Source: Octopus sinensis (lineage: Eukaryota). From it: a stretch of DNA of 64,000 bases. The stretch's first letter is position 1. Every line of letters starts with the position of its first letter. Under the pieces are notes generated by a model. It worked only from the letters and a program-made list of their open reading frames with translations. It made no database searches and was not told the DNA's origin. Shown here piece after piece: positions 46,517 through 62,074 of the stretch. The DNA is taken from positions 35,774,001-35,838,000 of the forward strand of contig NC_043010.1 of NCBI RefSeq assembly GCF_006345805.1, in the 5' to 3' direction. The position numbers and the translations under genes are program-made.

Positions 46517-46886
46517 AAATCCTATGAACCCAGAAATTGAAAACAGAGGGTTACCCACTTGCAAACAAATGTGGTAACATATAACAATATTGAGCGAGGT
46601 TACCGTGGTTTTTTTCGTAGGCTTTTCTTCCCACGGATAAACCTTATCTGCTTCCCCCTTTACACCGTACACCTATTGATCGTTTTTTTTTCCTCTCCCC
46701 CTTTTCTCCTCTTTTTTCTTCCTTTTTTATTTTTATTTTCCTTTTTTTTTCCCCCTTTTACGATCCCTTTTGATCGAAAACCTACGCCTCTTCTTTTTTT
46801 TTGTCTTTTTTCATCCCACAAAAGAAAAGCTCTACCTTGTAATTTGTCTCATCTGTGTGCAGCCCTGTGTCGCCAATAAAGAAACT
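46517..46886 (+). mobile_element. Tx1 sister family, 3' UTR-only copy within (TATC)n
   Basis: Aligns with 49160-49537; (TATC)n on both sides. Confidence 0.8.
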
Positions 46887-46954
46887 TATCTATCTATCTA
46901 TCTATCTATCTATCTATCTATCTATCTATCTATCTATCTATCTATCTATCTATC

Positions 46955-47350
46955 TATACTCTTTACTCTTTTCTCTGTTACTCATTTCAGTCATTTGGCT
47001 GCGGCGATGCTGGAGCACCGCCTTTAGTCGAGCAAATCGACACCGGGACTTATTCTTTGTAAATCTAGTAATTATTCTATCGGTCTCTTTTGTCGAACCG
47101 CTAAGTTACTGGGACGTAAACACACCACCATCGGTTGTCAAGCGATGTTGGGGGGACAAACACAGACACATAAACACATACACACATATATACATATACA
47201 TATATACGTCTACCAAATCCACTCACAAGGCTTTGGTCGGCCCGAGGCTATAGTAGAAGACACTTGCCCAAGGTGCCACGCAGTGGAAGTGAACCCGGAA
47301 CCATGTGGTTCGTAAGCAAGCTACATCCCACACAGTCACTCTTACGCCCA
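46955..47350 (-). mobile_element. SINE family A
   Basis: Reverse-complement match to 2923-3325. Confidence 0.85.
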
Positions 47351-48910
47351 TGCATACGTTCATTTATTCTCAACAGCTTTTTGCTGTCGACGCCACCAAA
47401 AATGAATAATCTTATCGTTAAAGTAGCGAAATTGTAATGACTTTTGAACGATAACTGATGAGGGAAGAGCATGTTAGTCTTGTGAGCGATTTTTTCGTGT
47501 TCCTTTCTCGTCCGTTGTAATTTTTAAATCTAATTATTTAATGTAAAGCCACGCCTCCTCCATTTTGCTCCTACTCTGTAGCATCACACAACGGTAAGAT
47601 TTGTTGCAACACTCTCTCTCTCTCTCTCTCTCTCTCTCTCTCTTTCCTACTCTCTCACTTTCCATTTTTCTCTTCGTCTATCTTTCATTCTCCCTCATCA
47701 CCTTACCTCTCTGTTGCTTTTTCTGTTTATCCCTTTCACTTTGCTATTCTCCCTCCTTCTCTTCGACACACTCCTGCCTCCTTCAACGCACTCCACCTTC
47801 ATTCCATTTTTTTCTCTCTACAATCTCATTTATTTAAATCTGCATTTCTTTCCTGCTTTCTTTCTTTCTTTCTTTCTCTTTCTTTCTCTCTTTCTTTCTC
47901 TCTTTCTTTCTCTCTCTCTTTCTTTCTCTTTCCTCTATCTTTGTCTGTCTGTTTGTCTCTCTCTCTCTCTCTCTATCTCTCTATCTATATATCTATATCT
48001 CTATCTATATATCTATCTATCTATCTATCTATCTATCTATCTATCTATCTATCTATCTATCTATCTATCTATCTATCTATCTATCTATCTATCCCCTTTC
48101 TCTTTATACTCTGCTCCCATCTATTCCCCTGTCTTTCTCTCTCCTCTTCCCAACCTGTTTTCCCTCTCTATCCTCCCTCTCAGTACCACGTGACCTTCCC
48201 GTTTCTCCCTTCAACCTTCCTTTCCGTGCATGATCATTGACTTCTTCAGTCATGTTCCCTTGGGCTCTTGCCTTGGCATTTAACTTCAACCCGGTTGTCT
48301 ATCTTTCCTTGTATTTCTTCCATCCTTCCAATTTTCTTTCTATCTCGCTCCTTTCCTTTTAAGTCCTTTCAAGGACATCATTTTCCATTAGCGTTACTTT
48401 TACACATGTTTTGTCTCAAAGCTGTCTCATAGCCGTAAGACCTTTATTCCTATGTATATATTTCATAATAATCAACTACCTATGTCGTTTACTGTTATGT
48501 CTCGTGTTATTCTGTCGTCGTTTATAGTTTGTTTCTGTCGCCGTCCTCTACGTTTGCTAATTTATTCTCAGCAGGTTTTTGGTGTTGACGCCACCAAAAT
48601 GAACAATCTTATCGTTAAAGGCGCAAAATTGTTGTGATTTTTGAGCGACAACTGGTGAGTGAAGAGCATGTCTACGTCTTATGAGCAATTTTTCGGCGTG
48701 CAATTTTTTTTTTGTCATCTTTCTATATAATTTTTAAACCTATCTATCTATCTATCTATCTATCTATCTATCTATCTATCTATCTATCTATCTATCTATC
48801 TATCTATCTATCTATCTATCTGTCTGTCTGTCTGTCTGTCTGTCTGTCTGTCTGTCTATCTATCTATCTATCTATCTATCTATCTATCTATCTATCTATC
48901 TATCTATCTA

Positions 48911-49537
48911 AGGGCGAATGGCACCGCGAGTGTCGCGTTGCTCTCAAGCAACTCTGCCGTCCTGGGTCGACCTTGAGTGACTTCATCACAACTAAAGCAT
49001 TCTCCACTTTCCTCTCTGGTCAATCTCTCAACTTCTTCAAGTATCACTTGAAGAGGAAAGTGAGAGTAGAGAGGCAAGTTTTGTCTAGTGAATGTTTTAA
49101 AAAAGATGGGTGAATGTAGCAAGGATGGCACGTATGAATGACGAAGCCACCTTGACTATGATTCTATGAACCGTAAAAATTAATACAGAGAGTTGCTTAT
49201 TTGCAAAAAAAAAAGAAATATAACATGTGACTTCATTGACCGAGGTTACCGTGGTCTTTTCCGTAGGCTTTTTTTTCCACGGGTAAACCTCACCTGTCCT
49301 CCATTTTACACTTCATATTGACATTTCTGTGATAACGATCCCTATTGATCAATTTTTTTCCTTTCCCTTTCCCCCCACTTTTTTTTTTATTTTATTCCCT
49401 CCTTTTTTGTCCTCTTTCTTTCCCTTTACGATCCCTTTTGATCGAAAACCAAACCCCCTTTTTTACCCCCAAAAGAAAAGCTCTACCTTGTAATTTGTCC
49501 TGTCTGTGTGCAGCCCTGTGTGGCTAATAAAGAAACA
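48911..49537 (+). mobile_element. Tx1 sister family, 5'-truncated and internally deleted copy within (TATC)n
   Basis: [15 protein letters not shown] and FLSGQSLNFFKYHLKRKVRVERQVLS match the ORF2 C-terminus at 55820-56896; 3' end CAGCCCTGTGTGGCTAATAAAGAAA; (TATC)n on both sides. Confidence 0.85.
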
Positions 49538-61089: not shown

Positions 61090-61366
61090 GTTTTTTTTGT
61101 AATATTCAAAAAGTTTAAAATGTCAAATTTTCAAAGTTTCAAAACGTAATTTCACCCCGAATGGGCAAAATTTCGCCCAACCGACGAGCTCCGCAAGAAG
61201 CCGGTCGGTTTGGCTACAAAAATATTAAAAAATATTCAAACTTATCAATAGATTTCCAGTGAAATTGGTGTCAAATTCACGGAGCTTTTTCAGACACGTC
61301 CATCGGCGTCGGAAGGAATAATAATAATAATAATAATAATAATAATAATAATAATAATAATAATAA

Positions 61367-61496
61367 CACATCCTACGCAAAACACTTTCAATACAGTAAC
61401 CATAAGAGCATCAAACACAATCATAGCACATACCCAAAGCACAAAGAGCTGTGCTCGGTAGTGAAGTGAACGCACGTTATAAAAATAAAACTACTG
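61367..61496 (+). mobile_element. R4/Dong-type family 2, extreme 3' fragment within (AAT)n
   Basis: HILRKTLSIQ* plus UTR; matches 63638-63767. Confidence 0.8.
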
Positions 61497-61508
61497 AATA
61501 ATAATAAT

Positions 61509-62074
61509 CCATTCTTTTATTAGCTACAAGGACTCACATACAATAACATTAAAGGACATGCAACAAGATAAAGACAAAACCGGGACCATACAATGGGTTT
61601 TCCGCGTGCCGATAATATAAAAAACAATTAAAATTGAACAGATTAAAACTCCCAATAGGGGAGGCGCTTTAAGGTCCTCGTGGAAAACTCTACAAAAGTC
61701 ACGGGCGCCTGATCAACAGGGCAAGAGCCCTTCTCCTTTAGTTCCCTTTTTTTTTACAGGTGCACGCTCACACTGGCCATTCTTCCAACATTCGCCCACC
61801 TTTCAACAAACTTGCTACAAGGCAACCATTCCCTCTTATTAAACTTCCTTTTCAAGTAAAACTTGAAAAAGTTGATGAGGGCTTGGCCAAAGAGAAAAGT
61901 GTCTACCTTTAGCCCTTTCAAACGGGTCCACCATACTACCTCTTTCGCTACAGCCACTAGAAAAATAAAAATTGCCTGCTCCTCCCAGCTAAAAGAGGGC
62001 GGCAGGGCAATCCTCACAATAGATTCTGCTGATAGCCAGATCCGCCCTACGCGCAACAGCAGGTGTTCGGCATA
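61509..62074 (-). mobile_element. Second, diverged 5'-truncated Tx1 copy ending at (ATT)n
   Basis: YAEHLLLRVGRIWLSAESIV..AVAKEVVWWTRLKGLK matches the ORF2 C-terminus; homologous 3' UTR. Confidence 0.9.

Follow-up and report, generated by a model that had tools for sequence, protein, structure and literature searches.

Sister LINE lineages of the L1/Tx1 group associated with (TATC)n and (ATT)n microsatellites in Octopus sinensis

Introduction

LINEs that insert at specific targets are models for the way in which an endonuclease and a template RNA choose an address, and they provide leads for the insertion of genes at safe sites. In human L1 the tail is poly(A) and the target site, TTTT/AA, is loose. 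Waldo and Mino are microsatellite elements of the R1 clade, and Dong, a member of the R4 clade, inserts in (TAA)n. The endonuclease in the group to which Dong belongs is of the restriction-like type (PMC4640811), and Dong is named as an octopus consensus in a passage of PMC9115989. Within the Tx1 clade, the elements Kibi and Koshi of teleost fishes have (TC)n and (TTC)n, respectively, as their specific targets, as stated in a passage of Kojima (2015; PMC4494074) that cites Kojima and Fujiwara (2004). The crocodilian Tx1 families (Tx1-1_Crp, Tx1-2_AMi and others) are described in a further passage of the same paper as lying on (TTCC)n or (TTTC)n (Kojima, 2015; PMC4494074). The elements considered here were found in a 64-kb stretch of Octopus sinensis DNA, referred to throughout as the window, and their relatives were traced through the 2.7-Gb genome. 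Positions are those of the window.

Element copies in the window

The window contains four copies of LINEs of the L1/Tx1 group, a type with an APE endonuclease and a reverse transcriptase. Two of these lie on the forward strand and belong to a TATC lineage. The first (46518–46886) is a 5′-truncated copy of 369 bp that consists of 3′UTR only and has a T1b-like end, ...GCCAATAAAGAAACT, as delimited by alignment, by BLAST against the second copy and from the sequence. It is preceded by an (ATCT)n/(GTCT)n array (46361–46517; TRF and sequence) and directly followed by (TATC)17.8 (46887–46957; TRF). The second (48911–49537), of family T1a, is likewise 5′-truncated and retains the last ~65 codons of ORF2 and the 3′UTR, ending in ...GGCTAATAAAGAAACA. 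Its 5′ flank is a (CTAT)n/(CTGT)n array (48740–48910; TRF and sequence) and its 3′ flank is (TATC)4.5 (49538–49555). The final 139 bases of this copy are 98–100% identical to 40 scored genome copies.

The remaining two copies lie on the reverse strand. A full-length LINE of an ATT lineage, 5,772 bp in length, occupies 55545–61316 and has CCTTCCGACGCC as its first bases. On the element strand it is preceded by (ATT)16.7 (61317–61366), and its 3′ end, ...AATAAAAAAGAATTG, is directly followed by (ATT)n (55510–55544; both arrays from TRF and sequence). The other copy (61509 to ~62077) is 5′-truncated, with the last ~105 ORF2 codons and the 3′UTR, and its 3′ end, ...AATAAAAGAATGG, is followed by (ATT)4 (61497–61508). 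The 5′ end of this copy adjoins the tail of a SINE.

The flanks given in a preliminary description of this DNA could all be located, namely (ATT)n on both sides of the full-length element, (ATT)n at the end of the 61509 copy, and a repeat of the (TATC)n type on both sides of each of the two forward-strand copies. The same description had pictured two copies for each of two families, and in this it has to be amended. In BLAST the DNA identity between the 61509 copy and the full-length element is only ~79%, and the former belongs to a separate and older family, ATT2, whose other copies are 78–86% identical to it. The window therefore holds three or four families rather than two pairs. The families as a whole exceed two: the (TATC)n side comprises T1a, T1b and T2, and the (ATT)n side several.

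Encoded proteins and kinship of the lineages

The full-length element has an ORF1 frame of 479 codons from stop to stop (59683–61122, reverse strand) with one C-X2-C-X4-H-X4-C knuckle. This is followed by an ORF2 of 809 codons (56821–59250, reverse strand) that encodes the APE endonuclease and the reverse transcriptase. This reading frame is interrupted near 56825, where comparison with a TATC-lineage copy shows a 7-base gap, and the remaining part of ORF2, with a zf-RVT domain and the stop codon, continues in another frame (55820–56941, reverse strand). Both frames are open in at least three TATC-lineage copies, and ORF2 is open in one ATT copy.

In Pfam searches, Exo_endo_phos is found at residues 11–232 and RVT_1 at residues 515–760 of the protein P0002, and both are likewise present in the T1 ORF2. 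C-terminal to the reverse transcriptase a zf-RVT domain is matched in the full-length element (E = 7.6e-9) and in T1 (E = 1.5e-7). The zf-CCHC match in ORF1 falls under the Pfam cut-off, with E-values of 0.06 (ATT), 0.004 (T1) and 0.001 (T2), and neither Transposase_22 nor RRM was matched in ORF1 by Pfam. The closest solved structure, matched in a PDB search with E = 1e-44 over residues 5–802, is that of human L1 ORF2p. When the endonuclease part was used for the PDB search (sequence only, E 0.01), the matches were L1 endonuclease chains (native and two loop chimeras), L1 ORF2p and the cellular AP-site enzyme 6w3u, with no chain named R1Bm or TRAS1 among them. By their domains and closest solved structure the elements belong to the L1 group (L1 and Tx1). 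They have Tx1-like traits, and the Tx1 clade itself is a candidate assignment. ORF1 variants of the RRM/zf-CCHC kind (type I) are consistent with that clade (Ivancevic, 2016; PMC5203782).

The amino acid identity over the APE and reverse transcriptase of ORF2 is 72–73% between the TATC and ATT lineages, and 80.5% between T1 and T2. In a tree of the C-terminal region T1 and T2 group together with a support of 81/89, and ATT, ATT2 and P0004 with a support of 96/97. The suggestion that closely related APE elements differ in their target repeat is borne out by this identity and by the two separate clades.

The loop corresponding to that of L1 is near-identical in the two lineages (TWTNRIGSSRS against TWSNRSGSSRS). 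In human L1 this loop is said, from work by Repanas in 2007, to govern the DNA selectivity of the endonuclease. A comparison of the target-recognition loops had been proposed as a check, and this loop therefore does not locate a protein determinant, if there is one. A loop that does diverge between the lineages lies at residues 147–175 of P0002 and includes a 3-residue gap.

3′ flanks across the genome

The 3′ end of T1, which is of the (TATC)n type (TGTGGCYAATAAAGAAACW), occurs 8,438 times in the genome. In 5,871 of these occurrences it is directly followed by TATCTATC, the exact TATCTATC being absent after ~30% of exact T1 ends, and (ATT)3 lies within 3 bases of the end in 28 matches, which represent 25 loci. 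The (ATT)n-type 3′ end of the window followed by (ATT)3 is found 175 times in the genome, and the same end followed by TATCTATC 0 times. None of the five genome searches gave a match when the pattern was reversed as a control. Among 70 sites of the shared 3′ motif, sampled by position, TATC units adjoin 46 of 56 TATC-lineage ends but none of the 9 ATT-lineage ends (Fisher P = 3e-6). These counts provide the deciding check on the flanks, which had been known from a handful of copies and prove to be lineage-specific genome-wide.

The same is seen when copies are inspected one by one. Among the 30 best T1 copies, (ATCT)n follows in one register after 29, and (ATT)n follows all 30 of the best ATT copies. 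Repeats of the ATT type are also found after the end in 30/30 ATT2 loci, including the copy in the window; here an (AAT)n run comes first in three loci, and a single ATT unit is followed by (ATC)n in one. A passage of Kojima (2015; PMC4494074) takes a target as specific when more than 20% of flanks are of a single sequence type, and the shares for T1 (5,871/8,438) and ATT (30/30) are far above this value.

The motif AATAAA is conserved 6–9 bases before the repeat and is present just ahead of it in every family. Some copies are arranged in head-to-tail tandem. A hairpin of the form AGCC-loop-GGCT before AATAAA was also considered as a candidate feature. Four pairs can form in 25 of 54 T1 ends and there is a mismatch in large subfamilies, and the hairpin is retained only as a conserved sequence motif.

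Target-site duplications and the choice of target

Four copies inserted in short targets have target-site duplications (TSDs) of 9–19 bp that start with a repeat unit; one of these was read at the edge of a stretch and is at least 9 bp long, and the three with both ends read are 15–19 bp. They are TATCTTCTGAAGAAC (locus L115), TATCCTCTAAACCCA (L185), TATTATTATC (L174) and, for a copy of the ATT lineage, ATTATTGTTCCGATGACGC (L047). The targets reconstructed from these four copies start with one or two cognate units.

The reading favoured here, with good confidence, takes the copies as members of two APE-type LINE lineages of the L1/Tx1 group that are sisters and keep throughout the genome to different repeats, (TATC)n in one and (ATT)n in the other, probably through the joint action of an endonuclease nick at a unit boundary and priming by repeat units of the RNA. 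The endonuclease would nick the bottom strand at the boundary of a repeat unit, and reverse transcription would be primed by pairing of the nicked strand with a few repeat units carried at the RNA 3′ end. The conserved AATAAA may cause transcripts to end inside the downstream repeat. Annealing and endonuclease preference would then set the target together, and a single target change would separate the two lineages.

It is considerably less probable that the RNA tail chooses the target and the endonuclease does not, the enzyme being relaxed and A/T-preferring. Read-through transcripts would copy units of the downstream repeat, and only nicks with a 3′ end able to pair would be extended, so that each insertion site would pass the preference on, and a lineage with a changed target could stem from one mis-insertion. 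The fixed register between the spacer and the first unit agrees with this, as it implies that the repeat units belong to the template. A single cognate unit in the target suffices, as seen from the TSDs of L115 and L185, and the L1-type selectivity loop is kept in both lineages. Copies of the T lineage do occur in ATT arrays (the 28 matches above), one of them, L262, being a young T1a copy that is 93–99% identical to the T1 reference over two aligned pieces.

However, switching is rare, with (ATT)3 at 28 of 8,438 T1 ends and TATC at none of the ATT ends. The ATT-tailed T copies form two tight clusters, most members of which share 3′ flanks or sit on small contigs, and the clusters therefore look like segmental duplicates rather than lines that breed true; breeding true was for this reason rejected. 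The tree in which they were seen lacks support values, and some flank sequence is included with the short copies in it. Moreover, the target type tracks deep clades at 20–30% protein divergence, which fits a preference encoded by the protein. A bolder form of the same idea is also doubtful. In it the target would be inherited through the insertion site without protein change; repeat units copied into the RNA would direct the following jump, and one foreign landing could re-aim a lineage. The ATT lineage would in this way derive from an element of the TATC type, or the other way round, and the two lineages, with a SINE that shares the ATT-lineage 3′ end, would be a main source of the (ATT)n and (TATC)n arrays of the genome.

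5′ flanks and the role of the repeat

Joint choice of the target by endonuclease and RNA predicts a repeat that was in place before insertion, and the 5′ flanks bear on this. At the 5′ boundary of 29 T1 loci, TATC-type units are present in 19 and absent in 2; the alignment breaks inside the element in 5 and runs beyond the stretch read in 3. Of seven ATT copies truncated within 1.5 kb, four have (ATT)n, one a TSD and two neither. Among 20 longer ATT copies 11 are full-length, and in all 11 the (ATT)n repeat is directly followed by the start of the element, CCTTCCGAC or TTCCGAC, the first base of the window element being the same as theirs. Two of the 11 come after the 3′ end of another copy. 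In a positional sample of 29 T1 copies with a visible 5′ end, the array is on both sides in 15, on the 3′ side only in 6, on the 5′ side only in 2 and on neither in 6. The proposal of a cognate repeat on both sides, including at varied 5′ truncation points, is therefore upheld for truncated and full-length copies, in one orientation. Cognate 5′ flanks in both kinds of copy, together with TSDs that start with the repeat, indicate that the repeat is the target and not merely a tail.

These data largely refute the view, now very improbable, that the repeats are only tails derived from the element, with insertion not aimed and 5′ arrays present by chance or as tails of upstream copies. Such tails are suggested by the array on the 3′ side alone in 6 of 29 T1 copies and in the ATT-family loci L045 and L128/L037, and by AATAAA just before the repeat. 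But the cognate 5′ repeat is seen at many truncation points, mostly without an upstream copy, and at the start of all 11 full-length ATT copies read, and in the short targets L115, L185 and L047 the TSD has just one or two units and no tail is added. The further suggestion that the elements seed microsatellites of this genome stands in part, from the copies with a 3′-side array alone and from the SINE with an (ATT)n tail. Random insertion followed by loss except in microsatellite-rich DNA, for which there is nothing specific beyond the abundance of both repeats (~1% of the window each), is the least credible explanation and is contradicted by the precision of the junctions, since it gives no account of the fixed register, the single orientation, the base-exact junctions or the different repeats of sister lineages.

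Unoccupied sites were also sought. When locus L004, which lies on an unplaced contig, was searched in full against the genome, no allelic contig without the copy was obtained, the matches being L004 itself and other element copies. Contigs from four public runs (three organism labels) compared with 45900–50100 of the window break off at the arrays, with 46353 and 48732 as examples. None of the joints passes over a copy, and these contigs are uninformative on empty sites.

Comparison with known systems

With an ORF2 identity of 72–73% and unrelated repeats, the sister lineages are likely to be a natural pair for studying a change of aim, and the differences between them are few enough for mapping by domain and tail swaps. 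Thousands of microsatellite arrays are linked to retroelement ends. This octopus genome has L1/Tx1-group LINEs that are full-length and have open frames; for Octopus bimaculoides, a passage of a 2022 study states that no assembled full-length LINE was found (PMC9115989). No description of these families was met with in searches of the literature on octopus and cephalopod LINEs and on microsatellite-specific non-LTR elements, and Repbase may already have them.

Human L1 ORF2p (PDB 8sxt, 1vyb) is the closest solved protein with APE and reverse transcriptase, and the octopus elements resemble L1 in their TSDs, of 15–19 bp in the three copies with both ends read, and in their frequent 5′ truncation. 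Unlike L1, the octopus DNA copies lack poly(A), carry a CCHC knuckle rather than Transposase_22 in ORF1, and have a microsatellite as target. Dong shares a target with the ATT lineage, (TAA)n being equivalent to (ATT)n, but the octopus elements have an N-terminal APE instead of the restriction-like endonuclease of R4/Dong.

The crocodilian Tx1 families are similar in that, among several relatives, the microsatellite target is either common or shifted. They differ in repeat unit and host, and the shift there is of one base gained or lost per unit, whereas here a 4-mer stands against an unrelated 3-mer. Kibi and Koshi are likewise APE-type LINEs in microsatellites, close relatives of which differ in their repeat, although the targets described here, (TATC)n and (ATT)n, are not pyrimidine-only, the host is a cephalopod and the copies number in the thousands. 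As Kibi, Koshi and the crocodilian families are known examples of Tx1 elements that are specific for microsatellites and have shifted targets, the octopus lineages add to a known class of repeat-seeking LINEs, for which (TATC)n and (ATT)n are new targets.

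LINE copies and arrays in the window

The window contains four LINE copies (tblastn and blastn scan), and the coordinates in the preliminary description were all borne out by TRF and direct reading. Two copies belong to the TATC lineage. The first is a 369-bp 3'UTR fragment (46518–46886, +; direct reading) that lies between an (ATCT/GTCT)n array (46361–46517, +; TRF and direct reading) and (TATC)17.8 (46887–46957, +; TRF). The second, of 627 bp (48911–49537, +; direct reading), comprises the last part of ORF2 together with the 3'UTR, with a (CTAT/CTGT)n array on its 5' side (48740–48910, +; TRF and direct reading) and (TATC)4.5 on its 3' side (49538–49555, +; direct reading). 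The ATT lineage is represented by a full-length element of 5,772 bp (55545–61316, −; direct reading), whose first bases, CCTTCCGAC, stand immediately 3' of (ATT)16.7 and whose last bases, ...AATAAAAAAGAATTG, pass immediately into (ATT)n. The fourth copy (61509–~62077, −; direct reading) belongs to the ATT2 family and ends in ...AATAAAAGAATGG(ATT)4.

Other repeats adjoin these arrays. A further tRNA-derived SINE-like repeat (46958–47330, −) lies immediately after the first (TATC)n array; its summed contig depth reaches millions in 4/4 public runs compared, so it ranks with the commonest repeats in these genomes. Another repeat is present as two diverged copies (47370–47545 and 48570–48740, +) that end in ...ATTTTTAAA(T/C)CTA, one passing directly into (CTAT)n at 48740 and the other being followed, without an array, by unique sequence. 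Exact runs across the whole window are asymmetric by strand: on the forward strand (TATC)n has 11 and (GATA)n 1, and (AAT)n has 19 and (ATT)n 0. Several of these runs belong to a single array, which leaves ~7–8 and ~11 independent loci, respectively.

Classification and relatedness of the two lineages

ORF2 of the full-length ATT element contains Exo_endo_phos, RVT_1 and zf-RVT domains (Pfam); near 56825 its reading frame changes, at a point where this copy is 7 bases shorter than a TATC-lineage copy. The top solved relative of its APE+RT protein (P0002) is human L1 ORF2p (E 1e-44, residues 5–802). Searched by itself at E 0.01, the endonuclease part retrieves L1 endonuclease chains and a single cellular AP-site enzyme, and no chain named R1Bm or TRAS1. 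On this basis the element is assigned by sequence to the L1 group (L1 and Tx1 clades). Protein search, profile search and the ESM Atlas gave no named anchors for placement in L1 or Tx1, the nearest named protein in the protein search being from Argonauta hians (55% identity). ORF1 has a single C-X2-C-X4-H-X4-C knuckle, a zf-CCHC match below threshold and no Transposase_22 (Pfam). An ORF1 with zf-CCHC and without Transposase_22 is termed ‘consistent with Tx1’ in the relevant part of Ivancevic (2016; PMC5203782), and the ORF1 here, with its zf-CCHC match below threshold, appears to fit that kind.

A 3' motif common to both lineages, TGTGGCYA(0–2 bases)ATAAA, has 15,238 matches in the genome (2.72 Gb, 13,516 contigs) against 377 for the reversed control, and the copies that carry it split into a TATC and an ATT lineage. 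The former has three 3'-end types, T1a (ending ...GGCTAATAAAGAAACA; the window copy at 48911), T1b (...GGCCAATAAAGAAACT; resembled by the copy at 46518) and T2 (...GGCTACAATAAAAAGT). The latter includes the full-length element's own family, ATT2, which is older and whose other copies are 78–86% identical to the 61509 copy, and several other end types seen in a positional sample. Across ORF2 APE+RT, identity is 72% between ATT and T1, 73% between ATT and T2 and 80.5% between T1 and T2; between ATT and T1 the APE is 65% and the RT 81% identical. An IQ-TREE tree of 345 C-terminal columns, midpoint-rooted and with both outgroup branches long, groups T1 with T2 (support 81/89) and ATT with ATT2 and P0004 (96/97), leaving P0006 and P0043 outside.

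Both ORFs are open in two T1 copies (L146, G000:C8581:1-7200, and L150) and one T2 copy (L148), where ORF2 has 1,150–1,152 codons; one of 11 full-length ATT copies (C1:92220800-92228857) has an open ORF2 of 1,142 codons. Many T1 copies are 98–100% identical across their last 139 bases, which points to recent activity. For Octopus bimaculoides, the relevant part of a 2022 study (PMC9115989) records that no assembled full-length LINE was found. Ten of the 30 best T1 copies (L002, L003, L007, L010, L011, L017, L020, L024, L025 and L028) are just 134–163 bp long, and their 5' ends cluster within a T-rich tract of the 3'UTR, a tract that may be favoured for stopping or joining.

Flanking repeats across the genome

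The preliminary description had held that related LINEs are associated with different microsatellites, and this specificity extends to the whole genome. In exact-pattern searches, for which reversed-pattern controls gave 0 in 5/5 cases, the T1 end TGTGGCYAATAAAGAAACW has 8,438 matches, 5,871 of them continuing into TATCTATC and 28 (25 loci) into (ATT)3 within 0–3 bases. The ATT end TGTGGCCAATAAAAAAGAATTG is followed by (ATT)3 in 175 matches and by TATCTATC within 0–3 bases in 0. A positional sample, the first 70 motif sites of contig 1 with lineage assigned by BLAST, agrees: T1 ends (54 sites) are followed by TATC at 45, by neither repeat at 8 and by ATT at 1, T2 ends by TATC and by neither at one site each, and ends of the ATT family by ATT at 5/5. 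Nine sites without BLAST assignment were judged by eye to be 5 non-elements and 4 other ATT-lineage ends, 3 of these with ATT and 1 with a single ATT unit and then (ATC)n. With the by-eye calls included, TATC follows 46/56 TATC-lineage and 0/9 ATT-lineage ends (p = 3e-6).

The ATT-tailed copies of the TATC lineage form two tight clusters, one at C2:86.07–86.71 Mb (L256–L259) and C9003 (L278), in which one 3' flank is common to three copies and another to two, and one on the small unplaced contigs C172, C873 and C12680 (L274, L275 and L280), where three copies have the same tail start. These look like segmental or assembly duplicates of a few cross-target insertions.

The repeat as probable insertion target

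Whether the repeat is a target or an element-derived tail is decided by the 5' sides. Among 29 of the best-matching T1 loci, TATC-type units adjoin the 5' boundary in 19, which are truncated at many different positions, and are missing from it in 2; in 5 the alignment is broken within the element and in 3 the boundary lies beyond the stretch read. Of the 29 T1 copies in the positional sample whose 5' end is visible, 15 are flanked by the repeat on both sides, 6 on neither, 6 on the 3' side only and 2 on the 5' side only. ATT copies truncated within 1.5 kb (n = 7) have upstream (ATT)n in 4 cases, a target-site duplication (TSD) in 1 and neither in 2. Twenty of 22 longer ATT copies were examined. 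All 11 full-length ones begin at one base directly 3' of (ATT)n, 2 of them following another copy's 3' end, and the 9 truncated ones have upstream ATT units in 4 cases (two with a few extra bases), none in 4 and an assembly gap in 1. In T1 and T2, too, full-length copies begin after (CTAT)n or another copy's tail. In head-to-tail pairs (L145, L147, L131, L132, L187 and L195) a 3' end is followed by a few repeat units and the next copy's 5' end. T1 5' ends open with a variable (GGAC)n-like run.

The original target was reconstructed for four copies in short targets, with TSDs of TATCTTCTGAAGAAC (L115), TATCCTCTAAACCCA (L185), TATTATTATC (L174; at the stretch edge, at least 9 bases) and ATTATTGTTCCGATGACGC (L047, ATT family). 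All four TSDs start with a cognate unit, near-cognate in L174. These copies have only the one or two units of the TSD after the spacer, so no long tail of their own was brought in these cases. Cognate 5' repeats at varied truncation points, together with the TSDs, support the reading of the repeat as insertion target.

Proposed mechanism and determinants of target choice

The TSDs place the first-strand nick just 5' of a unit, leaving a bottom-strand end of ...GATA-3' or ...AAT-3'. Each family's own spacer meets the first repeat unit in a fixed register, and the units therefore belong to the RNA template. AATAAA lies 6–9 bases upstream of the repeat in every family; cleavage and polyadenylation would then fall within the first downstream units, so that a few units from the site where the element sits would be carried by its transcript. 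Base-pairing of these units with the nicked target would then prime reverse transcription, with a second nick 15–19 bases further along.

The target may be set by the endonuclease or by pairing of the RNA tail. Comparison of the APE loops, as proposed in the preliminary description, showed that the stretch corresponding to the L1 hairpin loop, the loop swapped in PDB 2v0r and 2v0s, is nearly identical between lineages; work by Repanas in 2007 reportedly found this loop to govern DNA selectivity in the human L1 endonuclease. Within the APE, divergence peaks at P0002 residues 147–175, where the TATC lineage is three residues shorter. A purely RNA-borne address, in which pairing of the transcript's units and not the endonuclease picks the target, may apply, but cross-target landings are rare (28/8,438 T1 ends), the two ATT-tailed clusters, mostly with common 3' flanks or on small contigs, look like duplications, and target type tracks deep clades in the C-terminal tree.

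Both LINE lineages conserve AGCCC(T)TGTGTGGCYAATAAA just 5' of the repeat (e.g. 49505–49531, +, and 55551–55580, −). A 4-bp stem, AGCC/GGCT, is possible at this motif, the SINE equivalent being AGGC/GCCT; a hairpin there was rejected owing to a mismatch in large subfamilies.

Candidate SINE partner and possible microsatellite seeding

A ~215-bp tRNA-like SINE ends in ...CCTTGTGCCTATAGTAGAAAGGATTATT, similar to the ATT-lineage LINE end ...CCCTTGTGGCCAATAAAAAAGAATTGATT, and is a candidate non-autonomous partner of the ATT LINEs. Window copies lie at 62078–62300 (−), 20384–~20600 (−), ~8170–8490 (−) and 35444–35463 (+), with further loci at L226–L255; an exact 20-mer has 5,541 genome matches (control 0). 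Of 30 copies sampled by position, 15 run into at least 3 ATT units, and an ATT array lies 5' of 8/18 recognisable heads.

The proposal that the elements may seed microsatellites is supported in part. An array limited to the 3' side is seen in some copies (in the T1 positional sample; L045; L128 with L037), the SINE has ATT tails, and in the window a LINE or SINE end precedes 5/15 (ATT)n arrays and a LINE end precedes 2/8 (TATC)n arrays.

Comparison with known systems

The genome-wide flanks and the 5' sides confirm the original observation and support its first interpretation, that sister LINE lineages are aimed at different microsatellites. In the relevant parts of the published accounts, APE-bearing target-specific groups are the Tx1 and R1 clades (Kojima and Jurka, 2015; PMC4640811), and a target-specific family is one with >20% of flanks of one sequence kind (Kojima, 2015; PMC4494074). 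According to the latter source, the targets are (TC)n for Kibi, (TTC)n for Koshi, and (TTCC)n or (TTTC)n for crocodilian Tx1 families; both systems of this sort and changes of target between related families are thus already known. No published description of these octopus families was found in the literature, Repbase lying outside the scope of the search. Compared with Kibi, Koshi and crocodilian Tx1, what is new here is the repeat units, the host group and the scale, and also a sister pair with some open-frame copies and a candidate SINE partner.
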